A stretch of 64,000 bases of DNA from Desulfatiglandales bacterium. Its GTDB lineage: Bacteria; Desulfobacterota; DSM-4660; Desulfatiglandales; Desulfatiglandaceae. Position numbers and translations under genes: made by a program. The stretch is from NCBI GenBank assembly GCA_963662465.1, contig OY759599.1:4064001-4128000 (forward strand), in the 5' to 3' direction. The notes beneath the pieces are model-generated. The model was given only the letters and a program-made list of their open reading frames with translations. It ran no database searches and was not told the origin of the DNA. Below are positions 12,479-47,054 of this stretch, piece after piece (the first letter of the stretch is position 1; each line of letters opens with the position of its first letter).

Positions 12479-13079
12479 AACCATGTGGCGCTTTGTTCAA
12501 ACGGGTGGACCCATCATGATCCCATTGGTGCTGATTTCCATCTGGATGTGGTATTTGATTGTTCAAAAGCTGCTGTGGATATTCCGTATTCGCCGCTATC
12601 CCCTGAAAATATCCGAGGCCCTTAACGTCATGGCAGCCCCCCCCAAACAGTTGGGAGGGCATGACACTCCCAGGTCCGGGGCCCTCAACTATTTTCTGGG
12701 GCAGCGGCGTTTCAACCCGGAGCCCGATCGGATTATGTGGGAAGTGGCAGTCAAGCGCCAGCTTTTCCCCCTCAACCGGCACATGGCCGCCATTCTGGTG
12801 CTGGCCACGGTGGCGCCCCTTTTGGGATTGCTGGGGACGGTGACGGGTATGGTGGATACCTTCAGGGTGATTGGCGTTCAAGGGGCAAGCAATCCCCAGG
12901 CCCTTGCCTCGGGGATCAAGGAAGCCCTGATTACCACGCAGACCGGACTGCTGATCGCCATTCCCGGTCTTCTGGCCGGGCAGACCCTGCGTAAGATGAT
13001 CCGCAACATTCAGGGGGATCTCATGATATTTTACCGGGCCGTGGACCAATGGCTGGAAAGGAATACGCCCCATGTTTAG
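12465..13079 (+). CDS. exbB: ExbB
   Basis: APLLGLLGTVTGM...ALITTQTGL. Confidence 0.9.
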   Translation: MNCLETMWRFVQTGGPIMIPLVLISIWMWYLIVQKLLWIFRIRRYPLKISEALNVMAAPPKQLGGHDTPRSGALNYFLGQRRFNPEPDRIMWEVAVKRQLFPLNRHMAAILVLATVAPLLGLLGTVTGMVDTFRVIGVQGASNPQALASGIKEALITTQTGLLIAIPGLLAGQTLRKMIRNIQGDLMIFYRAVDQWLERNTPHV

Positions 13080-13503
13080 AATCGGCAGCAGTCTTGGCGG
13101 CAACCGGGGGCTGGACGGCAGTGAAGACGCCGAACTCAACATGGCGCCCCTCATCGATATGATTTTTATCCTTTTGATTTTTTTCCTGGTCACCGCCACC
13201 TTTGTGAAGGAATCCGGGGTGGAGATCCAAAGGCCCGAAGCCGCATCGGCCCAGGACAAACCGGAGGCCGGACTTTTCATCGGCATCACCGAACAGGGGG
13301 AAATCTTCATTGACAAAACGCGGGTGGATTTAAGGAGCGTTCGCGGCATGGTGGAACATTTTTTGTTGGAAACCCCTTCGGGAGGCGTGATCCTTGAAGC
13401 CGACCGTTCCAGTCTCACGGGACGCCTCGTGGCGGTCCTGGATCAATGCCGAATGGCGGGGGCCGAAAATATCGCCGTATCCACCCTCAGGAGCGAACCG
13501 TGA
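13072..13503 (+). CDS. exbD: ExbD (copy 1)
   Basis: NMAPLIDMIFILLIFFLVT. Confidence 0.95.
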   Translation: MFRIGSSLGGNRGLDGSEDAELNMAPLIDMIFILLIFFLVTATFVKESGVEIQRPEAASAQDKPEAGLFIGITEQGEIFIDKTRVDLRSVRGMVEHFLLETPSGGVILEADRSSLTGRLVAVLDQCRMAGAENIAVSTLRSEP

Positions 13504-14330
13504 GAACAGGGCCGGCAATGGTTTTTTCCAGCCGGAAAAAGCACGGTTATGGCCTTTTGGCCTTCCTTCTGTCGCTTCTCATCAATGTCGTTATTTTCGC
13601 CATTGCCCCCATGCTCCTGGAACAGACCGGCGTGACGGACTTTTTGCCCCATGCCCTTCTGAATTTGAAAATGCCCCTGCGGTCGGAACAACCGGGATCT
13701 GAGTCAGAGCAAGACATTGAGATGAGGGATGAAAATCCCCAACCGGCACCCATGGAACCGGAATTGGAAATCGATTCACCGGACGTACCGGAGATGTTGC
13801 CCCCCGAACTTGAAATCCCCCCACTGACATCTCCCCAGGATTCTTTTGATGAGCCTGCCCCTGAAATATCCCGGTTGGAAATTCCCCTCAAGACCGTGTC
13901 CATGAAATCCGTACCCGTGGCCTTGTCCGCGCCCGCTGCCGCCCCGGCATCCTCACCCCCCCCGGCATCCGCGCCACAACCGGCTGCGCGGTCAAACCCG
14001 CAACCCGTCAAGGAACATAAAAAAAACGGCGGTTATTCCCTGGGCCAGGTGGATGCGGCGCCGAGGGCCATGTATCAGGCGCTCCCTCGCTATCCGCGCC
14101 GCGCCAGACAACGAAACATCGAGGGATGGGTGAAAGTCCGTTTTCTGGTGGATAAAGAGGGGCGGGTTCGGAACCTTCGAATACTGGAAGAATCCCCGCC
14201 GGACGTTTTTCATGAAACCGTCATGGAAACAGCGCCCCGGTGGCGCTTTCGCCCGGCCACAAAGGAAGGACGTCCCGTGAACGTCTGGGTGGAACAAACC
14301 ATTAATTTCAGGATGGACGACGCATGGTAA
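13500..14330 (+). CDS. tonB: TonB (copy 1)
   Basis: N-terminal TM, Pro-rich linker, YPRRA...IEGWVKVRF...WRF.P. Confidence 0.9.
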   Translation: MRTGPAMVFSSRKKHGYGLLAFLLSLLINVVIFAIAPMLLEQTGVTDFLPHALLNLKMPLRSEQPGSESEQDIEMRDENPQPAPMEPELEIDSPDVPEMLPPELEIPPLTSPQDSFDEPAPEISRLEIPLKTVSMKSVPVALSAPAAAPASSPPPASAPQPAARSNPQPVKEHKKNGGYSLGQVDAAPRAMYQALPRYPRRARQRNIEGWVKVRFLVDKEGRVRNLRILEESPPDVFHETVMETAPRWRFRPATKEGRPVNVWVEQTINFRMDDAW

Positions 14331-15937
14331 ACCGGAAACGCACCTTTCTGATTGTCTTTATGCTGGTGTTTCCATGGGGCGGCAGCCTTTTCGGCGGACA
14401 ATGCCCCCAGGAGATGCCCCCCATGAACCCGGACCTTCACAAGTGCATGGTCCAGGCTGAAAAACTGATGGACCGGGGCCGGAACACGGAAGCCCTGACC
14501 CTGTTGGATTGTTATGCTCGGGAAAACCCTTCTGAAAAACATCCTCATCCGGTTTTTGTCAGGGGGCTTTTGAATTACCGGCTCAAACGGCTGAAAAAAG
14601 CAGAGGCCCTTTTCAAAACCGCCGTAGACCGTAACCCTTGCTTCGTCGAAGCCTGGCAAAACCTGGCGGTGGTGTATCATGACCAAAAACGACCGGCCCG
14701 GGCCGCAAAATCAATGGAACGGGTGCTGGCCCTGTCAAAGGATGAACAGCCGAGTTTGAAATACCAGGCCGCCCTGTGCTGGCTGGCGGCGGACAAACCC
14801 GGAAAAGCCCTTCCCCTGCTTCAGGCCTTATCCCGAAAGAAACCGCCTCGTCCTGAATGGTTGACCCGCCTGGCGGAAGCCCAAAAAGCCCTTGGGCAGC
14901 CGAAAAACGCTGCCATGACCCTTGAAAAAGCCTACCGCAACGACCATGATCCTGAACGCCTTTACCAGGCGGCCCTGCTTGATTTGAAGGCGAAAGCGCC
15001 GGATAAAGCCCTGCCTTCTTTGAAGAAACTGGCGGCAAGCCCCCACCCTGACGCTAAATGGATCATTCTTCTAGCGCTGACCTTAGACCAGCTGGACCAC
15101 TGTTCCGAGGCCATGGAGATCATGGAAAGAACAGAGGTTAACGCCCCGTCCCTGCCGGCTGAAATGCGCTTTCAGGTGGGGATCTTCTGGTTGAAGCATG
15201 AGCGTCCCAAACAGGCCCTGCCCTGGCTTGAAGCCGTTTTTAAGGATCCCAATCCCCCTGAAGGCGCCCGCCGGGCTTATATCCGGGCACTGGTCTTGGC
15301 CGGAAAACCCCATCAGGCCGACCCCTTGCTTAGCGCCCTGTTAAAAAAAGATCCGGAGGACCATGGCATCTGGCGTCTTGCCGCATGGATTTATATGGAA
15401 CAGAAGGATTATCCCCGTGCGGCCGCCGCCCTCCACGTGGCCTATCGTCTTAATCCTCCGAACCCCGGCGAGTGGAAACGCCTGGGAGACCTGTATCGGC
15501 TTTCCGGCGTTCCCATGAAGGCCGTCGACGCTTACGAAAAAGCCTTTGGTCCATCGCCGGGAGCAAGGGACCTGGATTTGCTGGCTGAAACCTATATCGC
15601 AGCGAACCGGATGGAAAAGGCCCTTGCCGCGGCAGAGCGTGCCGTACGTTTGAAACCCACGGCGAAACGCTGGGCCAGACTGGGAGACCTCTGCCTGAAA
15701 TGCAGGGAGTGCCGCAAGGCAAAATCCGCCTTTCAACAGGCAGCGAGAATTGACGACAGGGGTGGGCTAATGAGCTTAAAGGAAGGATACGCCGCCTGGC
15801 AGATGCAGGAAATGTCATGTGCGAAAAATGCCTTTCAGAAGGCGCTTCAGCACGCGGAACCGAAAAGCGACACGGCTCTGAAAGCGTCCCATGCACTGGC
15901 GGCTATCCGGAAAATCACGGATGCGGCAAAAAATTGA
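14324..15937 (+). CDS. Exported TPR protein (TtpD-like, copy 1)
   Basis: Signal peptide and repeated TPR helices; last gene of the TonB set. Confidence 0.85.
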   Translation: MVNRKRTFLIVFMLVFPWGGSLFGGQCPQEMPPMNPDLHKCMVQAEKLMDRGRNTEALTLLDCYARENPSEKHPHPVFVRGLLNYRLKRLKKAEALFKTAVDRNPCFVEAWQNLAVVYHDQKRPARAAKSMERVLALSKDEQPSLKYQAALCWLAADKPGKALPLLQALSRKKPPRPEWLTRLAEAQKALGQPKNAAMTLEKAYRNDHDPERLYQAALLDLKAKAPDKALPSLKKLAASPHPDAKWIILLALTLDQLDHCSEAMEIMERTEVNAPSLPAEMRFQVGIFWLKHERPKQALPWLEAVFKDPNPPEGARRAYIRALVLAGKPHQADPLLSALLKKDPEDHGIWRLAAWIYMEQKDYPRAAAALHVAYRLNPPNPGEWKRLGDLYRLSGVPMKAVDAYEKAFGPSPGARDLDLLAETYIAANRMEKALAAAERAVRLKPTAKRWARLGDLCLKCRECRKAKSAFQQAARIDDRGGLMSLKEGYAAWQMQEMSCAKNAFQKALQHAEPKSDTALKASHALAAIRKITDAAKN

Positions 15938-16856: not shown

Positions 16857-17570
16857 TCAATAAACATGGGGGTGTTTTAACGCCTGATGTTTATGGAAAT
16901 GGCTGTGCAGCGTTCCGGCCGCGCCGTTATAGGCAATTTTTCCGGCCGTCATAGTGTAGATTTTCCGGGTGGTTTCCTCCAGAAAATCGTATTCGTGAGA
17001 GACGATGACATAGCTGATGTCGAGACGGTTCAGGAGAGAGGCGATGGTGCTCCGGGCCTCTTCATCCAGGCCGGTGGTGGGTTCGTCCAGCAGGAGCGCT
17101 TTCGGCTGCATGACCAATACCGTTGCCAGGGAGACGAGCTTTTTTTCGCCTCCCGAAAGCCTGTGGGTAACGCGGTTTTCAAATCCTTTCAGTTTCAGCA
17201 TTTCAAGGGTTTCCATGGCCATGGAACGGGCCTCTTTGGGTGTTTTCCCCAGGTTGAGTGGGCCGAAAGCCACATCTTCCAGTACGGTGGGACAAAAAAG
17301 CTGATCATCCGCGTTCTGAAAAAGAAAACCGATGACGCGTCTGACCGTCAGAAAATCTTTTTTGCTTTCGACTGTTTTTCCCAAAACCCGGATACTTCCG
17401 GATGAGGGTTTGAGAAGCCCCATGATGATATGCAGCAGCGTGGTTTTGCCGCTGCCGTTATATCCGATCAATCCTACCTTTTCTTCTTCGGGAAGGGAGA
17501 ACTTCAGATTGTTCAGTACCGGCTTGTCTTTTTCATGGGAAAAGCAGAGGTTATCCAGTTCGAGAATCAT
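16857..17570 (-). CDS. cbiO: ECF ATPase CbiO/NikO (copy 1), His-rich tail
   Basis: GYNGSGKT, FQNADDQLF.PTV.EDVAFGP, LSGGE, LLDEP. Confidence 0.9.
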   Translation of the reverse strand: MILELDNLCFSHEKDKPVLNNLKFSLPEEEKVGLIGYNGSGKTTLLHIIMGLLKPSSGSIRVLGKTVESKKDFLTVRRVIGFLFQNADDQLFCPTVLEDVAFGPLNLGKTPKEARSMAMETLEMLKLKGFENRVTHRLSGGEKKLVSLATVLVMQPKALLLDEPTTGLDEEARSTIASLLNRLDISYVIVSHEYDFLEETTRKIYTMTAGKIAYNGAAGTLHSHFHKHQALKHPHVY

Positions 17571-18325
17571 TATGCGTGTACCCATTCAAGGATTAGTATG
17601 CCCAATAGGGTTGTGATGGTGCAGAACAGCCAGATCAAGTCCCGCCGCGATCGGGAAAATTCGGAAAGGGAATGGAATTTCCCGTTGAACCCGCGGCAAA
17701 GCATGGCCATGTAGACCCGCTCGGCCCGCTCCGAGGCCCGCACGAAAAGCATCCCCACGAGATAGGCGAATGTCCTGTAGGTGTGCAGCCGAGTGGACGG
17801 TTGAAACCCGCGGACCGCTGCTGATCGGACCAGCCGGTGATATTCCTCTTCCATAACGAAGATATACCGGTAATTCAGCAGCAGGAGATGCACCATTTTT
17901 TGTGGAACACCCAGCCTGCCGAGAGCTGCCCCCAGGCTTGCAACGGAACTGGTGGCGATGAGCGCAATAAAAGCCAGCAGTATGGCATTGCTTTTGAGCG
18001 TGATTCGGGCCGCAATCAAAACCCCCTCATGGGTTGCCGTGAAGGGTCCCAGGGAAAAAATGGGTTGGCCGGGGTAGGTAAAGGGGATCACAAACCAGAA
18101 GAAGAGAACAAAACCGTTTACTATCGCAACCCGTTTGCCCACTTCCCACAGGGGCAAGCGGGAGGTGCCCAGGAGAACAAAGGAAAAGGCGAGACTCAGA
18201 AAAAGAGGGGGAAATCGGTTTGAAAGGGCCACGACAAAGGCATAGAGCGTCGCCATGACAATCTTGAACCGGGGGTCGAGGTCGTGGATGGGGCTGGCGC
18301 CGTGCGCAAAGGGTTCCTGTAACAT
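17570..18325 (-). CDS. cbiQ: ECF T component CbiQ (copy 1)
   Basis: LDPR.K, YRYI, RAERVY.AM.CRGF. Confidence 0.9.
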   Translation of the reverse strand: MLQEPFAHGASPIHDLDPRFKIVMATLYAFVVALSNRFPPLFLSLAFSFVLLGTSRLPLWEVGKRVAIVNGFVLFFWFVIPFTYPGQPIFSLGPFTATHEGVLIAARITLKSNAILLAFIALIATSSVASLGAALGRLGVPQKMVHLLLLNYRYIFVMEEEYHRLVRSAAVRGFQPSTRLHTYRTFAYLVGMLFVRASERAERVYMAMLCRGFNGKFHSLSEFSRSRRDLIWLFCTITTLLGILILEWVHA

Positions 18326-18332
18326 AAATCCA

Positions 18333-18726
18333 TCAGCCTTTCTTGCGTGCGTCTATTTCACGGATTTTGCGGCGAAAGTGGATATAGGAGGCCAGGCCCA
18401 ATAAACCCAAAATATAGCCGATGCCGCCCAGAATATCGTGGAGGGTGGGCGCTTTGTCCTGGGATTCCGCAAACATTTTGAGTACCGGTCCGAGCCTTCG
18501 CTCCAGGGATTGGTCCAGAACGTCGCGCATTTGGTTCAGGTTGACGGAGGATGCTTCCATTGAATTTGCTTTCCGTGTGAACGGTATCGCCTTCCACCCA
18601 TGCGAATATGTTTACCCTGTGGGCCATTGCGGAACCGGACCACAGCAGGCAAAACATGAAAAGACATGCCGATCCAAAAGTAATTTGCCGGCATTGAATA
18701 GCATCAAAACTCAAAAATGTTTTCAT
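18333..18726 (-). pseudogene. NikL/CbiL-like gene with internal deletion and frameshift (copy 1)
   Basis: Signal peptide + AHRVNIFAWVEG in one frame; C-terminal DILGGIGYILGL in another. Confidence 0.7.
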
Positions 18727-18736
18727 GATCTCCTTT

Positions 18737-19342
18737 TCACGAAATATTCCCGGACAGCATTTCAGGTTGAACTTTTTTCAAAAATGCCACACAGAAAGCG
18801 GTGATGATCCCTTCGATGATCATCACGGGAAGGTGCGCCGTCACCACCAGATAGGAGACTTTTAAAAAATTTTCCTCGGTGAAGGTCAGGGCCAAACCCA
18901 CCATGACGGCGCCCAAAAAGACGGAAAGCGATCCGCACAAAAAAGCCGCCGGCAAGGCAATGCGAGGCCCCTTTCCCACGAGCTTACCGAATAGATAATA
19001 ACATAAAACGGCGGGCAGGGCCATGATCAGGGTGTTGACCCCGAGGGTCGTGATACCGCCGAACTGAAAAAAAACGGCCTGGAGCGCCAACGCCACAAGG
19101 ATGACGGGAAAAGCCCCCCAGCCGAGAATAAGGCCCACAATCCCGTTCAGAATCAGATGAACACTGGAGGGACCGATGGGAACGTGAATCAGGGAGGCTA
19201 CAAAAAATGATGCGGAAAGAATCGCGGCACGCGGGATGCGGTCGTAATTCAGTTTCTTAAGCCCTATGGCAGTGCCGGCAGCGGCCAGCACAATGCCCGA
19301 AATAATCACCGGCCCGGACAGGACGCCTTCGGAAATATGCAT
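18737..19342 (-). CDS. cbiM: ECF S component CbiM/NikM (copy 1)
   Basis: N-terminal MHISEG; FVASLIHVP; GGITTLGVN. Confidence 0.95.
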   Translation of the reverse strand: MHISEGVLSGPVIISGIVLAAAGTAIGLKKLNYDRIPRAAILSASFFVASLIHVPIGPSSVHLILNGIVGLILGWGAFPVILVALALQAVFFQFGGITTLGVNTLIMALPAVLCYYLFGKLVGKGPRIALPAAFLCGSLSVFLGAVMVGLALTFTEENFLKVSYLVVTAHLPVMIIEGIITAFCVAFLKKVQPEMLSGNIS

Positions 19343-19397
19343 GATATGCCTTTCATAATTAGAGAGAAGCAAAGCTGTTTGATCAAAACCAAGACCG

Positions 19398-19620
19398 TTA
19401 TGCTATTTTTCTTTCCAATCAAGGAATTTTACCCAGAGGACCGCTCCCAGTTCCACGATTCCCTGAAAAACGTTTCCGGCATAGAGACCGAACGGCTTTG
19501 ACAGGGGAACGATCTCGGTTTTGAGTCCGATTTCCCGGTCCCAGCCTTCATCATCCCCAAAAGCCGCGACAACGGTTTTCGTATAGTGAACGATGAAACA
19601 GTCTTCCGCCGGTTCCCATT
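19398..19620 (-). pseudogene. Collapsed remnant of DUF4198 gene
   Basis: Two joined segments matching about 36135-36194 and 36417-36578; the porin gene is missing in this copy. Confidence 0.8.
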
Positions 19621-19720
19621 ATGATCATTTGCGGCCGCTCTCGAAGCGACCGTTTTGTTTTGAACCGATCCGATCGGTTCGTCTCTCAGTTCGCATGCGC
19701 ATGCCTTGCTGAAAACAGCC

Positions 19721-19870
19721 AAAAAAAAGCCAAAAAGACAGTTTCGGGTACACCCCCGATCCAGCCTTCTTGGCTTTTTTGGTTTTTGCTTCAGATTTAT
19801 TTCAGATGTGCAATTTCGTATTGCACGTGCTATCGAGTGCTGAATAAACTCTTATTGCCGGGTTGTCAAG
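19721..19870 (-). promoter_or_regulatory. Promoter and structured leader of cbi operon copy 1
   Basis: TTGACA-17-TATTCA, GTGCAAT-ACGAA-ATTGCAC hairpin, then terminator-like hairpin with U-tract. Confidence 0.6.
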
Positions 19871-20033
19871 ATATTTTCCTAGGGAAGGAATGCACCACCA
19901 CCCAAGATGATTTTCGTTAAACCTCTGGCAGAGAATTTAGTACACTTTTGTGTTCAGATCAACTGAAAGGGAAGGTGGAATGATGCGCAATCAAAAGGAT
20001 GCGTGCTTCAGCACCGGCGCTTTGATCTTTTGC

Positions 20034-20200
20034 TTGACAGAAAAACCGGTACTTGTTATAGGACCCGAATTCCTACGGCGCAAAACGAAATTGCGCGCAT
20101 GATTCAAAGCGTAAAGACTGACACAATTTAGGTTTTAACAAAACAGGCCAAGAAGGCAATGTCGGATTGAAGTCCGGTGGTGTCTTCCCGGCCTTTTTTT
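20034..20200 (+). promoter_or_regulatory. Promoter and structured leader of the UGA-containing receptor
   Basis: TTGACA-17-TATAGG, GCGCAA-AACGAAA-TTGCGC, then GGCCAAGAAGGC...GGCC-T7 terminator. Confidence 0.6.
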
Positions 20201-20471
20201 ATGTGCTATGGAAAAGGGAGGGGGTGATTGAAAAGAGTGAGACCATAATCGAAATCAGACATTAAGGATGGGAAGACAGCCAAGGTTCCCGCAAGGATAT
20301 ATGGCTGCCTTCCCGGTGGAAGCCCCTCGGATGGAGAGACGCCCGAATATTCTTTTACCATAAGCGTATTTTCCCCGTCAATTTCCTTCTGCTTCCAATC
20401 CGAGGATAAACAACCTTGAGCCGCTCTAATGCGTCCAAAACGCTACGGCGGAAACAACGAAGGAAACAATA

Positions 20472-22583
20472 ATGAAAAAGTATTCAAAATGGGGTCATGG
20501 GACCTTTATGTTCCTGGGTCTCTGGGTCGTGATGGTTTTTCTGCTGGGGGCGTCGGTTTGCCCGAGTGATGCGGAAGAGCCGGAAGACAAGAAGGCAATC
20601 GCCCAAACGGGAGAAAAAAAGGCAGGCGCCGGAAAGGCCGTGCAACTGGAAGATGTGACGGTGATGGCGGCGCAACCGGGCGTTGAAATTACGCCGGATA
20701 AAACCGTCATTCGAATGGATGAGTTCGTTAAACCGGGAGATGTGCGAACCCTTACGGACGTGTTGAAAACCATGGGGGGCATCGACGTTATGCGCGTTAA
20801 TCCCATGATGGCCAGTCCGGGAGATGAAGTGTCCATTCGCGGCATGAACGAAGGCCGTCTGGTGGTGGAAATCGACGGCAGGAGAATCAACCACAGCGGC
20901 TACTATGGAAGGTATATCGTGGACTGGTCAACGCTGAACATGGACGATGTCGAAAAAGTTGAAATCATCCGGGGTGGTCATTCGGTGCTGCATCCCTTTG
21001 CCATCGGCGGCGTGATCAACATCATCACCAAAAAGGGCAAAAAAACCGATGATCCCAAGCCCAATGTGCGCGCCAAGGCGGGTGTGGGGGCCTTCACCAC
21101 CACCACGGAATCCCTTTCCATTGACGGCGGGGCATTCAATGTGGTGGGCTATGATTTTTCAGTGAACAATGGTTCCACCAACGGTTACTTGCGGAACAAC
21201 TACCAGGACAGCACCACGCTCAATGGACATTTAAGTTTCTTTATGCCCATGGACGCAGTGCTGGAACTGGGGGTCAAGCATGCGGATGTAAATTACGGAT
21301 TTCCAGTGGTAAACGACCCCTCCCGGGCCGATTACGATGCCGGCTCTCCCAACTTTTATGCCAATGCCGACCAGCTCAGGCATCTGAACTGGCCCCAGTA
21401 TGCGGAAAATGATCCCAGTTGGAAAAAACATACCACCTACCTCGACGGCATATTCCGCATGCCCGCGGGGCCCGGGACCATCAATATTCACGGATACCTC
21501 ACCAATGGCAGGCGCTGGACCAGCCTCTACAATAAAATGGGTGTTCTTGAACCCGATGTGTTCATGGATGACCGCACCGAGGGGGTTATCGCGGAGTACC
21601 GGGATATCGATTTATTCGGATTCAACAAGGTGACCGTGGGGTATGAATATCAACTCCTGGGCGCCCCCAGTGAAATTTCGGACCTGTTCCGGGTTAGCTC
21701 CGGGTACATCCAGGACGTGATCACCATAGGGGATCAATGGCGCCTCACACCGGGGGTTCGTTATTACCATGTGGATATGAACACTTACTACTCCCAGTTC
21801 GGCAAAGGATGGCCCGTAGCCGGCAATACGGAGACGGATGAGGGGTTTTATCCCAGCCTGAGGGCCGACTTTCAAGCCACCGATGAAACCGCCCTTTATG
21901 CGGCGGTGAGCCGGTCCTATCGGCTGCCGTGTCCTTGAGACTACTACTGGTGGGCGCGGTGCGCGTCCGAGGAGAATCCCACGTTAAAACCGGAATCGGC
22001 CTGGGAATACGAGTTGGGCCTGATTCAGGATATGGATCCCATTAATTTGAGAGCCGCCATATACTACTATGACATCAAAAACTTCATCAACGACAACGGC
22101 ATTACGTCTCCCGGAACGGGCATCGGGAGCAACTGCCTTTACAACATTCCCCACTTCAAACTCTGGGGCGGTGAAATCGAGACGAGCCTTCGCTTGGGCC
22201 GGTTCCAGGGGACCCTTTCCTACAACTATCAAAACTACAATGCGGACAATACCGGATTTGAGGCGGACTGGTCCTATTATCTTCCCGCGCTTCTGCCCCA
22301 GAACAAAGTCAAGTTTCTGGGCAATTACGAGGTCTGGAAAGGCGGGATGGTTCAGTTGAGCAGCATCTTCGTGGATGAACGAAAGACCCAGCAGCCGGGG
22401 GTGGACGATCTGGACAGCTACATCACCTTTGATGCGGGGTTTCAGCAGTCATTTCATTTCGCCGGCGTTAACTGGCGGGCCGAGACCTACTGTAACAACT
22501 TTACGGGGGCCAATTACCAGGAACAGGCGGGATACCGCATGCCCAAATATGTTTGGGGGTTTCTGTTGAGCGCCCGATTTTAA
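20472..22583 (+). CDS. TonB-dependent receptor with in-frame UGA (C-P-U), putative selenoprotein, 703 aa
   Basis: Signal peptide, plug, VEIIRG...IGGVINIITK. Frame stays open after TGA 21936-21938 (DYYWW...NPTLKPE) to a C-terminal Phe. Confidence 0.8.
21952..21968 (+). promoter_or_regulatory. SECIS-like hairpin
   Basis: GGGCGCG-GTG-CGCGTCC; stem starts 13 nt after the UGA and the loop starts with GU. Confidence 0.6.
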
Positions 22584-22609
22584 AATAGCCAAAAAAATGA
22601 GGTAAGATC

Positions 22610-23545
22610 ATGAAATATTACACCAATAAACGCATTTCAACCTGGTTTACAATTGCCTGTCTGGTCCTGGCGGCGGGATGGGTATTGCCATCCCCGGTCG
22701 CCGCCTGGGGAGGCCGGGGCCATCTGTACGTTATCGGCACCGGACCCGCGGGTCCTCAAACCGCCACGCTCCAGGCCCTTGATACCCTCAGAAGCATGGA
22801 TATCATTGTCGCCCCTCAAAAACATGTCAATCTGTTTGCGGAATATGTGGGCCAAAAACCCGTTCTGTTCGATCCGTGGACGGACATCTGGGACTACAAG
22901 GGAAAAAGCATGTGGAAGCTGGATGAAACGGAACTGGCGGCATTTAAGACGGAGCGCTTTAAAATCCGTGATGAGCGGGTGGCCAAAATTAAGGATGCAC
23001 TGGCCCGGGGGAAAGATGTGGGTCTCATGGACCACGGCAATCCCTGTTTATACGGTCCCAGCCACTGGTATGCGGAGCAGTTTGATCTTGATGATGTGAT
23101 TATCATTCCGGGGATGGGGTGCGACGCCGCGGCCATGGCGGCTCTTAAAAAAAGCACCATCCCCGCCCATGACAGCCATTTCGTCATTCAGACCGCTCCC
23201 TTTTCGCTGATGCGCTGGGGAGGGAAAGAACAGGCAATCCTCAAGGATATCGGCAAATACCCTTCGACCCTGATTTTCTATATGGCCCTTTGGGAGCCCG
23301 AAGCGTTGTTTACGGCGCTCAACTCAAGCTTTCCCCCGGATATGCCCTGCGCCGTGGTTTTCTGGGCCGGTTATCCGGAAAAGGAGCGGGTTCTTCGGGG
23401 AACCCTGGCGGATATGCCGGAAAAGCTTTCAAAAGACAAGGAAAAATTCATGGGATTGTTATTCGTGGGTCGGTTTCTTGAAGGCAACCCCTATGATGCC
23501 GCCATGAAACGGTCTCAGAAGGAATTGGGGAAAAACACGCCATAA
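22610..23545 (+). CDS. Tetrapyrrole-methylase-family (CobM/CbiF-like) protein with signal peptide
   Basis: LYVIGTGPAG, GNPCLYG, IPGMG motifs after a Sec-type leader ending PVAA. Confidence 0.85.
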   Translation: MKYYTNKRISTWFTIACLVLAAGWVLPSPVAAWGGRGHLYVIGTGPAGPQTATLQALDTLRSMDIIVAPQKHVNLFAEYVGQKPVLFDPWTDIWDYKGKSMWKLDETELAAFKTERFKIRDERVAKIKDALARGKDVGLMDHGNPCLYGPSHWYAEQFDLDDVIIIPGMGCDAAAMAALKKSTIPAHDSHFVIQTAPFSLMRWGGKEQAILKDIGKYPSTLIFYMALWEPEALFTALNSSFPPDMPCAVVFWAGYPEKERVLRGTLADMPEKLSKDKEKFMGLLFVGRFLEGNPYDAAMKRSQKELGKNTP

Positions 23546-23727: not shown

Positions 23728-25218
23728 ATGCTGTTTCGAAAGTTGATTTTGACCTGCATTCTAGTTGCGACGCTCTTTTTGATTCCCTGTTCTTCCCATG
23801 CCCACACGTACAGGGTTCCGGTTCTGGTGGACACGGACATGGCCCTGGACGACATGCGGGCCATTATTATGCTGTTAAATTCCCACATGGTGGATATCCC
23901 CCTTGTTGTGGTATCCGACGGCATTTCATCCCCTGAAAAGGGGGTTGAAAATCTCAAGGCCCTGCTGTCGCGCTTTGATCGAAACGGCGTCCACATGGCC
24001 AGGGGCAAGCCATCGGACATGCCGCCGCCTCCCGTCCGGCCGCTGTCTGAAAACATACAGTGGCCCCATAAGGGGGCATCATTTTCCCGGTCCATTGCGG
24101 CAAAAGATGCGCCTGGCGCCATTATCGAAACATTGAATGGGTTGCCCGGCCGGGTTGTTTATCTCTGCCTGGGACCCATGACCAACCTGGCCGAGGCCAT
24201 TCGACAGGCCCCCGGAATTCAATCCAAAATTTCCCGCGTCATCTATTTCGGGGATCATCCGAAAAGCGCCGACCCCGGTTGGAACACGACCCGGGATGTT
24301 GACGCCGCTGCCGGGGTTTTTGCATCGGGCATGGATATCTATTGCATTCACCCGGCCAAAAAAGACCTTCGTCCCTTTGATCGCAACATGCTGGAAAAAA
24401 TGGATGCCATTGGGTCCCCGGCGGCCAGGTTGGTATCCACCATTCACAAAGGGATTACGGTTCAAAAAGCCATTGATCAAGGGCATCTCATGATATGGGA
24501 CGAAAATGCCGTGATTTATCTGGAAAGCCCTGAGCTATTCAAGATGGAGCCCGTCTCAGGAGATCCATACCTCATGCGGCTGAACGGCTTCGATGCCGAA
24601 GGCGTACTCCGGGCCTATGTCGAATGCCTGGGGCGCCCGGCGGACGCCCATCTGGATGCCCGTCATGCGGTTGTGCTGAAGATGTTCCCCCATGATCCGC
24701 TTATGTTCAAACCGGATGTTGCGCCCCATGTGGACCGGATTATCAAACGGTACGGCATTGAAGAGTGGAAGGCCGCGGTTCTCACCCACGAGTTGCACCG
24801 GCACCTGGGCATCTATTCCCTGATCGGCGCCAAAATGGGCGTCAGGGCCAGGGAAATTCTGGATGCCCCTTTCGACGCCCTGAAGGTGGTTTCCCATGCG
24901 GGAAACAAACCGCCCCTCAGTTGCATGAACGACGGGCTTCAGGTGTCCACCGGCGCCAGCCTGGGGCGGGGAACCATTCGGATTGATGGCGAAAATCCAA
25001 TGCCTTCGGCAACCTTTATCTACCGAAACGAGAGGCTTGAATTGACCCTGAAACCCCGGTGGCGGGAAAAAATAAAGGCCGATATCAAGGCGGCCATTCA
25101 ACAATTCGGTGGCTTGAACAAGTCCTATTTTGCCCATATTCGAAAACTATCCATTGCATACTGGCATGATTTTAATCGTGGGGAGATTTTTGATGAAAAG
25201 CTGGGCCTGGCCAAATAG
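23728..25218 (+). CDS. Exported nucleoside-hydrolase-like / FmdE fusion
   Basis: VDTDMALDD, LGPMTNLA, WN...D, IWD; C-terminal HRHLG...SCMNDGLQVSTGASLGRG. Confidence 0.8.
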   Translation: MLFRKLILTCILVATLFLIPCSSHAHTYRVPVLVDTDMALDDMRAIIMLLNSHMVDIPLVVVSDGISSPEKGVENLKALLSRFDRNGVHMARGKPSDMPPPPVRPLSENIQWPHKGASFSRSIAAKDAPGAIIETLNGLPGRVVYLCLGPMTNLAEAIRQAPGIQSKISRVIYFGDHPKSADPGWNTTRDVDAAAGVFASGMDIYCIHPAKKDLRPFDRNMLEKMDAIGSPAARLVSTIHKGITVQKAIDQGHLMIWDENAVIYLESPELFKMEPVSGDPYLMRLNGFDAEGVLRAYVECLGRPADAHLDARHAVVLKMFPHDPLMFKPDVAPHVDRIIKRYGIEEWKAAVLTHELHRHLGIYSLIGAKMGVRAREILDAPFDALKVVSHAGNKPPLSCMNDGLQVSTGASLGRGTIRIDGENPMPSATFIYRNERLELTLKPRWREKIKADIKAAIQQFGGLNKSYFAHIRKLSIAYWHDFNRGEIFDEKLGLAK

Positions 25219-25672
25219 TTTCGTCCTTTTTATTGCGCTTCTGCTGATTCCCTGCGGACTTTTTGCGCACGGGGTCAAGGGAGAGATTGCCGTAGGGACC
25301 GGCGCTATGATTGTCACGGCCCGGTACAGCAACGATGAAGCTATGAGCTATTCCGAAACGACCATCCGCCCACCTGCCGGGGAATTGGATTTTCAGACGG
25401 GCAGAACCGACCGAAACGGCCGGTTCTGCTTTTTCCCAGATGCGGACGGCGATTGGGAGGTGACCGTTAATGATGGAATGGGACACCGGCTGAGGATATT
25501 GGTTCCCGTCAGCAAGGATAGCCCCCTTGCATCAGACCCCGTGGCTGCCCCTTTAACCGGAAATTCATCCGCTTTGGTTGCAAGAGCCCTTTCAGGTCTG
25601 TGCATTATCTTTGGCATTTCCGGGTGCTTAATATGGTGGAGAACCCGGAAGATCCATCAAAAAACGCCATAG
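25193..25672 (+). CDS. NikL-like exported beta-sandwich protein with C-terminal TM
   Basis: AHGV, YS..EAMSY, GRTDRNGRF.F.P, DGMGH. Confidence 0.75.
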   Translation: MKSWAWPNSFVLFIALLLIPCGLFAHGVKGEIAVGTGAMIVTARYSNDEAMSYSETTIRPPAGELDFQTGRTDRNGRFCFFPDADGDWEVTVNDGMGHRLRILVPVSKDSPLASDPVAAPLTGNSSALVARALSGLCIIFGISGCLIWWRTRKIHQKTP

Positions 25673-25704: not shown

Positions 25705-26532
25705 TTGATGTCTCGTTTTTGTAGTTTTTTCGGGTTCTTATTCTTTTTTTGGGTCATACCTGCGTTTGTATTCTTCCCTTGCCAGGCCGGCTGTGAATCG
25801 GAGGTTCAACCCACGGCCCTGCAAGTCAAGCAGAATGCCGAAGCATCGGTAGAAATCCGTCGTCTGAGCCAGAAACGCGTTGATGCCTGGGCGGATAAAG
25901 AAGAAAAAATGCTCTTGGAAATTTCACGCCTTCAGAAAGATCTGGATGCGCTCAAGTGGAGAAGGAAAAAAACCGATACCTATCTCTCGGATCTGGAAAG
26001 TAAAATGGCGGCCTTAAATGAAGGAAGCCGTGCGGCAAAAGAGATTCAGGATGAATTGGAGCCTTTCCTGGAAAAGACCCTTCAGGACCTGGAAGCGTTT
26101 TCCGAAAATGAATTGCCGTCCCTGAGGGAACTTCAAAGCCCCGGTCTTCAATCGGCCAAGGAAATGCAGAATGATGCGGATGCCGATATGGTCCGGAAAA
26201 CCCGCGGCCTGCTGGAGCTTCTCATGCGGGCCGTGGAATACGGATATTTCGTGGAACCGGACCAGACCGATATCGTCATCGATGAAAAGATCATTCGCGT
26301 CAAACGCATCAGCGTGGGACGATTGGGGCTCTTTGCCCTGAGCGCCGACGGAGATCAAGCCTGGAAATGGCAGCCTGGGAAAGAGCAATATGAACCGATT
26401 CCCCATTTTGCCGGCGCCATCCGGGAAGCCATCCAGATCTGTGAACGAAGGCGTCTGGTGGAATTGGTGGAATTGCCCATGGGACCCCCTGTCAGCCCCC
26501 CTGTCAGCTCTGACAAGGAGGTGGAAAAGTGA
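25705..26532 (+). CDS. DUF3450/TtpB-like (copy 2)
   Basis: Close paralog of 10251-11078. Confidence 0.75.
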   Translation: MMSRFCSFFGFLFFFWVIPAFVFFPCQAGCESEVQPTALQVKQNAEASVEIRRLSQKRVDAWADKEEKMLLEISRLQKDLDALKWRRKKTDTYLSDLESKMAALNEGSRAAKEIQDELEPFLEKTLQDLEAFSENELPSLRELQSPGLQSAKEMQNDADADMVRKTRGLLELLMRAVEYGYFVEPDQTDIVIDEKIIRVKRISVGRLGLFALSADGDQAWKWQPGKEQYEPIPHFAGAIREAIQICERRRLVELVELPMGPPVSPPVSSDKEVEK

Positions 26533-27932
26533 GGGTTTTGCTCTGTCTGTTTTTTTTATGGTCCTTCCCGCCATTGCTTTTTGCCCAATCGTCCTCATTC
26601 AGCCGGGTGGCCCAAGAGGTAGAGACGGATTTGAAAAAGGCGCAGGCGGAAGAAACCCTCACCCTGGCCGATGTGGCCGAGAAACGCAAAGAACTCATGA
26701 CCCGGCGGGATCGCCTGATATCTGATATCAAAAGGGAAAGCGAAGCCCTTGCAGCTGACGAACTGCGGCTTTCGGAAATGCGGAAAAAGCGGCTGGAACT
26801 GATCCGTATGGTTCAGACCCACACGGGCCGCATGAAAGAGCTGGATGCGGCCATACGGGATTTTGCTCGTAATTTCTATAGTTTAGCTGAGCGTTCCGCC
26901 TATAGTGCTGAAACGCCCGACCGGTTGACGATTCTCAAGCATTTCCTGGATAAAAACAAAATTCTCGGGATTCAGGATATTCAAACCCTGGTGGCATTGG
27001 CTTTTAAGGATATGACGGCATCAGGGCAGATCATCCGGCGTGAAGGGGGAATGGTGGATCGTCGGGGAGAAACGGTCCAGGGGGCGATTATCCGCATGGG
27101 CAATCTTACCGCCATCTACCGGAGCGGGGGAGATGTGGGGTACCTCAGCCCGAGTCCCGCTTCAGGGAGGCTTTTGGTTTCCGCTCCCCCCGGATGGGGT
27201 GTTTGCCGGAATCTGAAACAGTATTTTGAAGGGGAAACCGATGACGTCTATATGGATATCTCGGGGGGCGCAGCCATCAAACAGATGGCGCGTAAAGCCA
27301 CCTTATGGGAGCAGATTCAGAGCGGCGGCGTGTTGGTATGGCCTATCCTGCTGGTGGGGTTGGTGGCCGTCATTCTGGTGCTTGAACGGCTTATCTTCCT
27401 GGGTCGGGTGCGGCACAACACCGACAAACTCATGACCCATGTGACGGAGCTGGTGGAAGCGGGCGATTACCGGGGCGCCATGAAGGAAACCGAGTCCCTG
27501 TCCGGCATGCCCACCAGCAATGTTTTAAAGGCCGGGCTTACCCAGCAGGGTCAGCCCCGGGACATCATTGAAAGCAGTCTGGCCGAGGCCATCCTCAAGG
27601 AAACCCCGCGTCTGGAACGATTTCTGCCCGCCCTCAAGGTGCTGGCGGCCATTGCGCCCCTTCTGGGGTTGCTCGGGACCGTGACCGGCATGATCAACAC
27701 CTTTCAGGTGATTACCGTTCATGGGACCGGCGACCCGCGCCTTATGGCCGGCGGGATCAGCGAAGCCCTCATCACCACCCAGCTGGGTCTGGCCGTGGCC
27801 ATTCCCATACTGGTGATCGCGGCCCTTTTGGGACGAAAAGTGAACCGCATTGCCTCGGATATGGAGGAAAAAGCCATGGCCCTGATCGCGGCCCTTTTAA
27901 GAGATCAGAGGGTTTCCCATGAACTGTCTTGA
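26529..27932 (+). CDS. TtpC-like long ExbB (copy 2)
   Basis: Nearly identical to 11075-12478. Confidence 0.9.
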   Translation: MRVLLCLFFLWSFPPLLFAQSSSFSRVAQEVETDLKKAQAEETLTLADVAEKRKELMTRRDRLISDIKRESEALAADELRLSEMRKKRLELIRMVQTHTGRMKELDAAIRDFARNFYSLAERSAYSAETPDRLTILKHFLDKNKILGIQDIQTLVALAFKDMTASGQIIRREGGMVDRRGETVQGAIIRMGNLTAIYRSGGDVGYLSPSPASGRLLVSAPPGWGVCRNLKQYFEGETDDVYMDISGGAAIKQMARKATLWEQIQSGGVLVWPILLVGLVAVILVLERLIFLGRVRHNTDKLMTHVTELVEAGDYRGAMKETESLSGMPTSNVLKAGLTQQGQPRDIIESSLAEAILKETPRLERFLPALKVLAAIAPLLGLLGTVTGMINTFQVITVHGTGDPRLMAGGISEALITTQLGLAVAIPILVIAALLGRKVNRIASDMEEKAMALIAALLRDQRVSHELS

Positions 27933-28078
27933 AACCATGTGGCGCTTTGTTCAAACGGGAGGCCCCATCATGATCCCATTGGTGCTGATTTCCATCTGGA
28001 TGTGGTATCTGAATTCAGGGGGATCTCATGATATTTTACCGGGCCGTGGACCAATGGCTGGAAAGGAATACGCCCATG
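27919..28078 (+). pseudogene. exbB: exbB copy 2 with about 450-bp internal deletion
   Basis: The junction at 28012/28013 joins sequence equivalent to 12558 and 13008. Confidence 0.85.
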
Positions 28079-28507
28079 TTTAGAATCGGCAGCAGTCTTG
28101 GCGGCAACCGGGGGCTGGACGGCAGTGAAGACGCCGAACTCAACATGGCGCCCCTCATCGATATGATTTTTATCCTTTTGATTTTTTTCCTGGTCACCGC
28201 CACCTTTGTGAAGGAATCCGGGGTGGAGATCCAAAGGCCCGAAGCCGCATCGGCCCAGGACAAACCGGAGGCCGGACTTTTCATCGGCATCACCGAACAG
28301 GGGGAAATCTTCATTGACAAAACGCGGGTGGATTTAAGGAGCGTTCGCGGCATGGTGGAACATTTTTTGTTGGAAACCCCTTCGGGAGGCGTGATCCTTG
28401 AAGCCGACCGTTCCAGTCTCACGGGACGCCTCGTGGCGGTCCTGGATCAATGCCGAATGGCGGGGGCCGAAAATATCGCCGTATCCACCCTCAGGAGCGA
28501 ACCGTGA
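28076..28507 (+). CDS. exbD: ExbD (copy 2)
   Basis: Protein identical to copy 1. Confidence 0.9.
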   Translation: MFRIGSSLGGNRGLDGSEDAELNMAPLIDMIFILLIFFLVTATFVKESGVEIQRPEAASAQDKPEAGLFIGITEQGEIFIDKTRVDLRSVRGMVEHFLLETPSGGVILEADRSSLTGRLVAVLDQCRMAGAENIAVSTLRSEP

Positions 28508-29316
28508 GAACAAGGCCGGCAATGGTTTTTTCCAGCCGGAAAAAGCACGGTTATGGCCTTTTGGCCTTCCTTCTGTCGCTTCTCATCAATGTTGCCCTTT
28601 TCGCCATTGCCCCCATGCTCCTGGAACAGACCGGCGTGACGGACTTTTTGCCCCATGCCCTTCTGAATTTGAAAATGCCCTTACGGTCGGAACAACCGGG
28701 ATCTGAGTCAGAGCAAGACATTGAGATGAGCGATGAAAATCCCCAACCGGAGCCCATGGAACCGGAATTGGAAATCGATTCACCGGACGTACCGGAGATG
28801 TTGCCCCCCGAACTTGAAATCCCCCCACTGACATCTCCCCAGGATTCTTTCGATGAGCCTACCCCTGAAATATCCCGGTTGGAAATTCCCCTCAAGACCG
28901 TGTCCATGAAATCCGTACCCGTGGCCTTGCCCGCGCCCTCTGCCGCCCCAGCATCCGCGCCACAACCGGCTGCGCGGTCAAACCCGCAACCCGTCAAGGA
29001 ACACAAAAAAAACGGCGGTTATTCCCTGGGCCAGGTGGATGCGGCGCCGAGGGCCATGAATCAGATGCTCCCTCGCTATCCGCGCCGCGCCAGACAACGA
29101 AACATCGAGGGATGGGTGAAAGTCCGTTTTCTGGTGGATAAAGAGGGGCGGGTTCGGAACTTGCGAATACTGAAAGAATCCCCGCCGGACGTTTTTCATG
29201 AAACCGTCATGGAAACGGCGCCCCGGTGGCGCTTTCGCCCGGCCAAAAAGGGCGGGAGACCCGTGAACGTCTGGGTGGAACAAACCATTAATTTCAGGAT
29301 GGACGACGCATGGTAA
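28504..29316 (+). CDS. tonB: TonB (copy 2)
   Basis: Paralog of copy 1 with a 6-aa shorter linker. Confidence 0.9.
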   Translation: MRTRPAMVFSSRKKHGYGLLAFLLSLLINVALFAIAPMLLEQTGVTDFLPHALLNLKMPLRSEQPGSESEQDIEMSDENPQPEPMEPELEIDSPDVPEMLPPELEIPPLTSPQDSFDEPTPEISRLEIPLKTVSMKSVPVALPAPSAAPASAPQPAARSNPQPVKEHKKNGGYSLGQVDAAPRAMNQMLPRYPRRARQRNIEGWVKVRFLVDKEGRVRNLRILKESPPDVFHETVMETAPRWRFRPAKKGGRPVNVWVEQTINFRMDDAW

Positions 29317-30923
29317 ACCGGAAACGCACCTTTCTGATTGTCTTTATGCTGGTGTTTCCATGGGGCGGCAGCCTTTTCGGCGGACAATGCCCCCAGGAGA
29401 TGCCCCCCATGAACCCGGACCTTCACAAGTGCATGGTTAAGGCTGAAAAACTGATGGACCGGGGCCGGAACACGGAAGCCCTGACCCTGTTGGATTGTTA
29501 TGCTCGGGAAAACCCTTCTCAAAAACATCCTCATCCGGTTTTTGTCAGAGGACTTTTGAATTACCGGCTCAAACGGCTGAAAAAAGCAGAGGCCCTTTTC
29601 AAAACCGCCGTAGACCGTAACCCCTGCTTCGTTGAAGCCTGGCAAAACCTGGCGGTGGTGTACCATGACCAAAAACGACCAACCCGGGCCGCAAAATCAA
29701 TGGAACGGGTGCTGACCTTGTCAAAGGGTGAACAGCCGGATTTGAAATACCAGGCCGCCCTGTGCTGGCTGGCAGCGGACAAACCCGGAAAAGCCCTTCC
29801 CCTGCTTCAAGCCTTATCCCGGAAGAAATCGCCGCGTCCTGAATGGTTGACCAGTCTGGCGGAAGCCCAAAAAGCCCTTGGGCAGACGAAAAATGCGGCC
29901 ATGACCCTTGAAAAAGCCTACCGCAACGACCATGATCCTGAACGCCTTTACCAGGCAGCCCTGCTTGATTTGAAGGCGAAAGCGCCGGAAAAAGCGCTGC
30001 CTTCCCTGAAGAAACTGGCGGCAAGCCCCCACCCTGACGCTAAATGGATCATTCTTCTAGCGCTGACCTTAGACCAGCTGGACCACTGTTCCGAGGCCAT
30101 GGAGGTCATGGAAAGGACAGAGGTCAACAACCCGTCCCTGCCGGTTGAAATGCGCTTTCAGGTGGGGATCTTCTGGTTGAAGCGTGAGCGTCCCAAACAG
30201 GCCCTGCCCTGGCTCGAAGCTGTTTTTAAGGGTCCCAATCCCCCCGAAGGCGCCCGACGGGCTTATATCCGGGCACTGGTTTTGGCCGGAAAACCCCATC
30301 AGGCCGACCCCTTGCTTGGCGCCCTGTTAAAAGAAAACCCGGAGGACCATGGCATCTGGCGTCTTGCCGCATGGATATATATGGAACAGAAAGATTATCC
30401 CCGTGCCGCCGCCGCCCTCCACGTAGCCTATCGCCTTAATCCTCCGAACCCCGGCGAGTGGAAACGCCTGGGAGACCTGTATCAGCTTTCCGGCGTTCCC
30501 ATGAAGGCCGTCGACGCTTACGAAAAAGCCTTTGGTCCATCGCCGGGAGCAAGGGACCTGGATTTACTGGCCGAAACCTATATCGCGGCGAACCGGATGG
30601 AAAAGGCCCTTGCCGCGGCAGAGCGTGCCGTACGCTTGAAACCCACGGCGAAACGCTGGGCCAAAGTGGGAGACCTCTGCCTGAAATGCAGGGAGTGCCG
30701 CAAGGCAAAATCCGCCTTTCAACAGGCAGCGAAAATTAACGACAGGGGTGGGCTGATGAGCTTAAAGGAAGGATACGCCGCCTGGCAGTTGCAGGAGATG
30801 GCATGTGCGAAAAATGCCTTTCAAAAGGCGCTTCAGCACGCGGAGCCGAAAGGCGACACGGCTCTGAAAGCGTCCCATGCACTGGCGGCTATCCGGAAAA
30901 TCACGGATACAGCGCAAAATTGA
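29310..30923 (+). CDS. Exported TPR protein (copy 2)
   Basis: Close paralog of 14324-15937. Confidence 0.85.
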   Translation: MVNRKRTFLIVFMLVFPWGGSLFGGQCPQEMPPMNPDLHKCMVKAEKLMDRGRNTEALTLLDCYARENPSQKHPHPVFVRGLLNYRLKRLKKAEALFKTAVDRNPCFVEAWQNLAVVYHDQKRPTRAAKSMERVLTLSKGEQPDLKYQAALCWLAADKPGKALPLLQALSRKKSPRPEWLTSLAEAQKALGQTKNAAMTLEKAYRNDHDPERLYQAALLDLKAKAPEKALPSLKKLAASPHPDAKWIILLALTLDQLDHCSEAMEVMERTEVNNPSLPVEMRFQVGIFWLKRERPKQALPWLEAVFKGPNPPEGARRAYIRALVLAGKPHQADPLLGALLKENPEDHGIWRLAAWIYMEQKDYPRAAAALHVAYRLNPPNPGEWKRLGDLYQLSGVPMKAVDAYEKAFGPSPGARDLDLLAETYIAANRMEKALAAAERAVRLKPTAKRWAKVGDLCLKCRECRKAKSAFQQAAKINDRGGLMSLKEGYAAWQLQEMACAKNAFQKALQHAEPKGDTALKASHALAAIRKITDTAQN

Positions 30924-41493: not shown

Positions 41494-41678
41494 GTTGAAG
41501 GCAATTTCGACAATCGAAGTCCGGAGGACGGTGTTCGCCTGCCAGGGTCATCCGCCGTCCTCCGGGTTAAGCGCCCCCGTGAAAAAGGAGGCTCGGTTCA
41601 ATATTACCGGTGCATCTCTTTCTCGTCAAGCGGGGAATTCAAGATTTTGAACGGATTGACACAAGGAGGAGAGGCATA

Positions 41679-43910: not shown

Positions 43911-43958
43911 ATCCCTTCGACGAAAAGAAACAATAGCATCCAACTGGAGAAGAAAATA

Positions 43959-45596: not shown

Positions 45597-45631
45597 CCAA
45601 CGAAACCAATTTACGGCTCAAGGAGGGACCA

Positions 45632-46453: not shown

Positions 46454-46546
46454 GCGTAACCGTTTTCACAGGCAGGTTTCTGCCTTAGACAATCCTGATG
46501 TCAATTATCATCAACTTACGATGTTTCTTATATTAACGGTTTTGTG

Positions 46547-47044: not shown

Positions 47045-47054
47045 TCGAATGGAA

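Follow-up and report, generated by a model that had tools for sequence, protein, structure and literature searches.

Haem-type TonB-dependent receptors (HemR, ShuA, PhuR and ChuA) carry two boxes, FRAP and NPNL, and the haem-ligating histidine of HemR and ShuA lies between them. Other transporters of the class handle transition metals, among them OprC (PDB IDs: 6FOM; 6Z8Q; others), which carries copper, and the nickel receptors FrpB4, FecA3, NikH and CntO; none of these is known to use selenocysteine (Sec). TonB-dependent nickel transporters are listed in PMC11247825. A receptor of this class that is itself a selenoprotein, with a TGA codon and cysteine-containing homologues, has been reported by deep-Sep from Desulfosarcina sp. 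BuS5 (PMC12013277), and the excerpted text of a 2026 review (PMC13188914) lists only its type, FCYXU (NF049945). Here we analyse a gene of a different type, found in a 64,000-nucleotide stretch of the genome of a Desulfatiglandales bacterium (assembly GCA_963662465.1, contig OY759599.1, positions 4,064,001 to 4,128,000), hereafter the window. The gene occupies 20472–22583 on the forward strand and is interrupted by a TGA that an earlier note, made from the letters alone, had proposed to encode Sec. On comparative evidence it is a genuine Sec-containing TonB-dependent outer-membrane transporter and a member of the NCBIfam family NF049947, “TonB-dependent receptor, PCPU motif-type”.

Two open reading frames (ORFs) lie in the same frame, 20472–21938 (+, 488 residues) and 22014–22583 (+, 189 residues). 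Translation of the whole with TGA as Sec (U) joins them into a 703-residue product that has one U (U489), is free of further stops and closes with a TAA, in agreement with the undamaged barrel described in the note. This product starts with an N-terminal signal peptide, ends ...SARF and contains the motif SYRLPCPUDYYWWARCASEENPTLKPE; the codons around the TGA (21936–21938, +) read ccg tgt cct TGA gac tac tac tgg tgg gcg cgg tgc, placing U489 in C487-P-U489-D with C497 shortly after. Its Pfam domains, Plug (PF07715; 54.2 bits, approximately residues 77–181) and TonB-dependent barrel (PF00593; 112.6 bits), together with an AlphaFold2 model of a plug and 22 barrel strands, give the N-terminal plug and 22-strand barrel by which TonB-dependent transporters are recognised. 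Against NF049947.1 (TonB_dep_PCPU, a model of kind ‘exception’) it scores 1128.6 bits, with a curated cut-off of 800, residues 45–703 aligning to positions 22–685 of the 685 in the profile (1122.4 bits when the search was run at genome level), and the P-C-P-U motif that the family demands is present, its U coming from the in-frame TGA.

The sister models NF049944 (PUIUD), NF049946 (CU) and NF049945 (FCYXU), whose members share the same fold, all score under their cut-offs (479.5, 387.1 and 226 bits; PUIUD, CU and FCYXU motif-types). The receptor lies outside both the haem/haemoglobin receptor family (TIGR01785; 118.4 bits, cut-off 316.85) and BtuB (TIGR01779, 65.1 bits, cut-off 599.7; NF007926, 68.1 bits, cut-off 836), and far below the cut-offs of the siderophore receptor models in NCBIfam. 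The note had left open whether such a family was already catalogued: the PCPU type is known to NCBI curators, who named it without assigning a cargo. In the literature searched we found no account of its function; a full-text search gave no discussion of the PCPU type among the matches listed, and the excerpts of the review (PMC13188914) contain none of the terms NF049947, NF049944, NF049946, PCPU or PUIUD.

The case for Sec rests first on the conservation of the codon, which we followed in 201 genomes from the order and in an even sample of 401 genomes across the phylum. In the order, 20 genes from 19 of the 201 genomes exceed the family cut-off, each with exactly one in-frame TGA, and the phylum sample adds 7 further genomes from other families, with one gene each and a TGA in all 7. 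Taken together, the 26 genomes belong to several families and hold 27 genes above the cut-off, every one of which carries the TGA. The sequence RSYRLPCPUDYYWWARCAS has its TGA at the identical place in 21/21 extracted PCPU-type genes, one of them partial, and in the 7 genes of the phylum sample ...RLPCPUDYYWWARCA... recurs at that position, its flanks differing by a few substitutions. When residues 380–703 were compared with a collection of 5.8 billion proteins, 68 relatives were found, of which 67 are 442–544 residues long and end exactly in ...YRLPCP, meaning that the gene calls stopped at the TGA; standard gene calling breaks these genes, much as the note had expected of annotation pipelines. 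The remaining relative (P0002; N-terminally partial, 57% identity) has Cys at the Sec site (...RLPCPCDYYWWARC...), and in no sequence examined did we see Trp, Arg or Gly there. The U489 column, D490 and W494 are invariant in 25 sequences of four subtypes (PCPUD, PU[IG]UD, GCUD and ACUD), and the frame after the TGA is open and conserved, with invariant residues from Y513 to P691.

The genome (8.16 Mb, single contig) also has the machinery to insert Sec, as the note would lead one to expect: selA (614 bits), selB (382 bits), selD (373 bits) and a tRNA-Sec with anticodon tca (70.7 bits). As selD (5156011–5156934, outside the window) has one in-frame TGA of its own, it is the selenoprotein form of selenophosphate synthetase. 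Genome-wide recoding does not account for the codon, since 13 of 24 neighbouring genes end at TGA in the normal way.

Bacterial Sec codons are expected to be followed by a selenocysteine insertion sequence (SECIS), and a predicted stem-loop of this kind is present within the coding sequence at 21952–21968 (+; GGGCGCG-GUG-CGCGUCC), corresponding to the GC-rich hairpin with a GU-starting loop that the note had placed about 20 nucleotides downstream. The stem begins 13 nucleotides and the loop 20 nucleotides after the TGA; these distances and the G-first loop (GUG) fit the rules of bSECISearch and resemble the fdhF-type element, from which the hairpin differs in its short stem (7 base pairs) and loop of 3 nucleotides. 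No SECIS family in Rfam matched, either at gathering score across the window or at E ≤ 1 in 19300–22700. The 33 nucleotides from the TGA (TGA GAC TAY TAY TGG TGG GCG CGG TGC GCG TCC) are nearly identical in 21 genes and, with the GCG TCC ending, in 5 of the 7 phylum-sample genes, including the two whose proteins are no more than 51–52% identical to the receptor.

This constraint is visible at the codon level. In 18 full-length genes, 248 columns have an invariant amino acid with degenerate codons; over these columns the normalised codon entropy averages 0.74. Entropy is zero in only 3 of these columns, two of which, Ala+6 (GCG in 18/18) and Arg+7 (CGG in 18/18), lie inside the hairpin, and of the 244 five-column windows in the gene the one at +6..+10 ranks first, with the lowest entropy (0.163). 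The Pro and Cys codons immediately upstream of the TGA vary freely. Sister subtypes keep a hairpin of different sequence at the same distance, and when 27 sequences are aligned without gaps, 85.7% of cells are paired and 3 of the 7 pairs have changed on both sides, values that none of 500 shuffles reached; most of the unpaired cells come from the GCUD and ACUD types, in which the register of the hairpin is shifted by 1–3 nucleotides.

A different reading of the TGA is that it is a lesion or an assembly error, leaving a pseudogene or two products of 488 and 189 residues, as standard gene calling and the truncated database entries would have it. It draws some support from the folding energy of the hairpin, which is unremarkable (z = 0.09 for an 81-nucleotide stretch, with 104 of 200 shuffles folding at least as well), so that the significance of the hairpin comes from the comparison with relatives only and not from its energy. 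Conservation has nevertheless already refuted a lesion, and we give this reading next to no weight: the TGA recurs in every gene over the cut-off in 26 genomes of several families, the frame beyond it stays open and conserved, a Cys homologue exists, the synonymous sites of the hairpin are frozen and the Sec machinery is complete. Moreover, a truly decayed copy in the same window looks quite different. At 39626–40779 (+) lies a fragment of a second PCPU-type receptor, matching model positions 22–290, 364–445 and 541–584 only, which has a TAG inside, has suffered deletions and has lost the Sec region, and which thus exemplifies how decay of a gene of this family appears in this genome. The TGA at 21936–21938 is, as far as comparison of sequences can tell, a true Sec codon and no lesion; the UGA would be read as Sec by SelA, SelB, SelD and tRNA-Sec, directed by the SECIS-like hairpin inside the coding sequence. 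As a separate observation, the decayed copy adjoins an ORF (37972–39159, -) that combines a DruA-like (Druantia) region with DDE_Tnp_1-associated and ISAs1-transposase-like parts.

To place the Sec in the protein we used the AlphaFold2 model, built from a 25-sequence alignment (mean predicted local distance difference test score 79.4, predicted template-modelling score 0.82). Residue 489 opens a short helix (488–495) between strands 473–483 and 509–521, the 13th and 14th, so that in the model Sec489 is in the β13–β14 connection, extracellular loop L7. It stands between a FRAP-like box (YRLP) and an NPNL-like box (NPTLKPE), which in a profile alignment to CirA correspond to FKAP and PDLKPE, and the note’s placement of Sec in an extracellular loop between these two motifs is borne out by model and alignment alike. 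The matches to known folds are generic for the class (BtuB, FecA, PfeA, PhuR, YncD/PqqU, OprC, ShuA and ChuA), with E-values of about 1e-29 to BtuB, FecA, PfeA and others and a template-modelling score of about 0.70 to OprC, whose own Cys/Met/His site is elsewhere in the protein. Like the haem-type receptors, the PCPU receptor thus has its special residue between the two boxes, in L7; unlike them it falls outside TIGR01785 and has Sec and Cys where the histidine would be. In genes of the PU[IG]UD, GCUD and ACUD types Sec falls in the same alignment column, with Asp next to it, and a hairpin comes at the same distance; these genes differ from the PCPU type in that the second thiol or selenol is placed elsewhere.

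What these residues do is a further question. In FepA and CirA a disulfide lies in L7, and by analogy Sec and Cys might form a selenylsulfide or disulfide that serves as a redox-sensitive lock or gate and not as a ligand, in a receptor whose cargo could be anything, an iron chelate for instance. The two loop cysteines of CirA do fall in the same segment between the boxes (...SNSCRGACKIVGSPDLKPE); by the motif table in PMC13188914, dyads of the C-x-U, U-x-U and CU kinds are usual among redox motifs of selenoproteins, and truncated database relatives are named ‘iron complex outermembrane receptor’, though these names are automatic only. We nonetheless think a redox lock unlikely. Sec-Asp and Trp494 are invariant while the second thiol or selenol shifts (C-x-U, U-x-U, CU), a pattern that fits a ligand site better; the gene context is of the Ni/Co and Zn type and not that of siderophore biosynthesis, and in an anoxic habitat an extracellular redox switch would be of less obvious use. 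We would put at about even the chances that the Cys487-x-Sec489 dyad, possibly with Cys497, captures a thiophilic transition metal through its thiolate and selenolate.

Upstream of the receptor gene lies a second conserved RNA. The upstream regions of receptor genes at many loci share k-mers at fixed spacing, and in the window a structured 5′ leader RNA, a candidate cis-regulator, has its 114-nucleotide core at 20268–20381 (+), about 90 nucleotides before the ATG; it consists of a helix P1, the stretch GGUGRAAGCCCCUCGG, a long helix P3 built around a UACCAY loop, and lastly the tail CCGUCAA. A covariance model (R1) built from 13 sequences has only 2 matches in the entire genome, this one (96.4 bits) and 41520–41629 (+; 51.9 bits), and identifies 23 leader sites in the fetched loci, including sites outside the seed and sites before PUIUD-type genes. 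Pairing was assessed in a model-fitted alignment, which is biased in favour of the model and contains four weak rows from the reverse strand. There, 94.6% of P1 is paired and 5 of its pairs covary; in P3, which we defined by hand from the row of locus L077 and then tested once the sequences had been realigned to the model, pairing is 69% and 11 of 12 pairs have changed on both sides. None of 500 shuffles attains the covariation score, and slid controls come to about half of it. RNAalifold applied to a MAFFT alignment of the leaders recovered P1 only, and a column-wise helix scan missed P3 because its arms shift between rows. At gathering score no Rfam 15 family matched anywhere in the window, the leader included, and at E ≤ 1 the region 19300–22700 gave only implausible eukaryotic miRNA and snoRNA matches.

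Of 151 genomes sampled from the order, 27 contain the leader, with 1–2 copies each (loci L095–L121 are among its sites), and it is not confined to Sec receptors. We examined 17 sites away from PCPU and PUIUD genes; 16 have downstream room, and what follows is a Plug-domain protein in 13, a signal-peptide FmdE protein in 1 and nothing recognisable in 2. The second copy in the window directly precedes an operon (41610–48401, +) that encodes a TonB-dependent receptor lacking Sec (41610–43910, 766 residues), a lipoprotein with two TP_methylase domains that keep the GxGPGD and GDPxIYG motifs, a DUF4198 protein, a NikL-like protein and an APC-family permease; this receptor has no meaningful BLASTP similarity to the PCPU receptor. 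We put the leader forward as a candidate RNA that would act in cis to regulate a regulon of TonB-dependent receptors, and expression of the PCPU receptor is probably governed by it. About 70 nucleotides upstream of the core, at 20146–20200 (+), the shared k-mers mark a terminator-like hairpin followed by U7 (GGCCAAGAAGGC...CGGAUUGAAGUCCGG...UCUUCCCGGCC UUUUUUU), the sequence of which is conserved across genera; after it comes a conserved Shine-Dalgarno-like GGAGGUGAU with no conserved ORF. An attenuator, the end of a small RNA and a leader peptide are candidate roles for this hairpin. In one relative (L082) a tRNA-Sec gene (8304–8391, -; 56.1 bits) is situated about 600 nucleotides upstream of the leader RNA and receptor gene.

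The neighbouring genes bear on the cargo. Directly downstream of the receptor, at 22610–23545 (+), is a gene for a tetrapyrrole-methylase-like protein (311 residues; Pfam TP_methylase, 98.9 bits, below every NCBIfam cut-off), and a gene of this kind occupies the same place in all 16 distinct PCPU loci with flanking sequence and in all 7 loci of the phylum sample (23/23), as against 0/4 loci of the GCUD type; at one relative (L072) it is present in three tandem copies. Because it has an N-terminal signal peptide, this partner is predicted to be periplasmic, where S-adenosylmethionine would not be expected. Next comes a signal-peptide fusion of inosine-uridine nucleoside-hydrolase-like and FmdE domains (23728–25218, +; 496 residues), seen in 8/16 PCPU loci, and then a small membrane-anchored protein resembling the NikL family (25130–25672, +, for the longest ORF, the true start being probably further in; NF058648, 60.2 bits, E 2.5e-16), with homologues in 7/16. 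Both nikK and nikL have been proposed as periplasmic nickel components in delta-proteobacteria (PMC545781). An energising TonB system, comprising DUF3450, a long ExbB, ExbD, TonB and TPR genes, extends over 25705–30923 (+). Upstream and divergent, at 16857–19372 (-), cbiM, a NikL-like gene (122 residues), cbiQ and cbiO form an energy-coupling-factor-type Ni/Co inner-membrane importer (CbiM NF004905, 285 bits; CbiQ TIGR02454, 157.7 bits). Of five PCPU loci scanned with Pfam, four contain DUF4198, a family of periplasmic transition-metal binders whose member Zcp binds zinc and, in vitro, also cobalt, nickel and copper (PMC12663993). At single loci the receptor pair adjoins FecCD and an ATP-binding cassette (ABC) ATPase (L065) or Peripla_BP_2 (L071).

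Two side observations concern this neighbourhood. The ExbB-(ExbB)-ExbD-TonB-TPR cluster has undergone a recent segmental duplication, with copies at 11075–15937 and 26529–30923 (+) that are 99.2% identical over 1484 nucleotides and 95.9% over 2930, the second copy lacking the small ExbB gene. Two ORFs side by side at 31004–31468 and 31508–32356 (+) match an amino-acid permease in its N-terminal and C-terminal parts respectively and are probably the pieces of a gene that has been split.

As judged from the genes around it, the receptor is set in a context that favours metal handling of the Ni/Co type, and we infer that its cargo is most likely nickel or cobalt, either free or as a small complex. 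The grounds for a metal are the TP_methylase-like partner at all loci, DUF4198, the NikL-family matches, the divergent cbiM-cbiQ-cbiO and the fold match to OprC. The note had suggested a soft metal or a metal complex (Ni, Co or a corrinoid) as cargo; its metal part agrees with the gene context, the corrinoid part fares worse at the loci scanned, where no cobalamin riboswitch was found, and both continue to be inference. For the whole explanation, a Sec receptor with capture of the Ni/Co type under control of a leader RNA, we would give a probability of roughly 55%.

The same neighbourhood can be read in terms of rings. In haem receptors a histidine of L7 is the axial ligand to the ring metal, and the Sec/Cys pair could play this part for a cargo of metallo-tetrapyrrole or precursor type, such as a corrinoid, Ni- or Co-sirohydrochlorin or a compound resembling F430, with the periplasmic TP_methylase-like protein acting as a binding protein. 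That the partner of signal-peptide and TP_methylase fold is never missing from the 23 loci would suit such a cargo, as would the lipoprotein with two TP_methylase domains in the second operon, the FecCD/ABC and Peripla_BP_2 genes at L065 and L071, the position of Sec between the two boxes where haem receptors have their histidine, and the presence of BtuB and PhuR among the best fold matches. Set against this, scans of the window and of 16 locus files yielded no cobalamin riboswitch at gathering score, nor did 19300–22700 at E ≤ 1, which counts against an ordinary corrinoid importer controlled by a B12 riboswitch; the receptor reaches only 65–68 bits with BtuB models that require 600–836 and 118 bits with a haem-receptor model that requires 317, and the DUF4198 and NikL-like partners suit ions better. 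On balance a tetrapyrrole strikes us as a doubtful choice, with perhaps one chance in five.

Several points, in addition to the folding energy given above, weigh against capture of nickel or cobalt. The obligate partner is a homologue of tetrapyrrole methylases, which suits a tetrapyrrole cargo no worse than a bare ion. The two NikL-like matches, at 60 and 34 bits, are under the NCBIfam cut-off of 100, and apart from this locus cbiM-cbiQ-cbiO are seen next to the receptor in a single close relative (L063 and L069 being the same site). DUF4198 has been characterised for zinc and not for nickel, at least in the excerpted text of PMC12663993. No NikR box was found in the window when the delta-proteobacterial consensus (as excerpted from PMC545781) was allowed up to 3 mismatches in three arrangements, which counts against simple control by NikR, and Rfam finds no NiCo riboswitch in the 16 locus files.

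If nickel or cobalt is indeed the cargo, the Cys/Sec site in L7 could compete with sulfide for the metal in an anoxic habitat, and the TonB system encoded beside the receptor would drive its passage through the barrel. The cargo might then be handed to the periplasmic TP_methylase-like, DUF4198 and NikL-like proteins and from these to an inner-membrane importer, which would be cbiM-cbiQ-cbiO here and FecCD/ABC or APC permeases elsewhere. More tentatively, and as a possibility that we rate well short of even, the receptor may gate, at the outer membrane, a pathway not yet described by which bacteria of sulfidic, anoxic settings take up a thiophilic metal (Ni or Co) or a metallo-tetrapyrrole, with the periplasmic TP_methylase-fold protein as its fixed partner, DUF4198 and NikL-like proteins working alongside, and a new class of leader RNA, possibly a riboswitch. 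In that event the leader RNA would switch the pathway, and the same RNA precedes genes for TonB-dependent receptors of several unrelated families in the order.

Among the parts described here, the obligate TP_methylase-like partner and the leader RNA looked new. A Sec in the surface loop of an outer-membrane transporter would be an unusual piece of cell-surface chemistry, and the conserved TP_methylase-like partner, the neighbours of the Ni/Co type and the unlisted leader RNA offer concrete handles for finding the cargo. These same features bear on how anaerobes in sulfidic settings may acquire scarce thiophilic metals.

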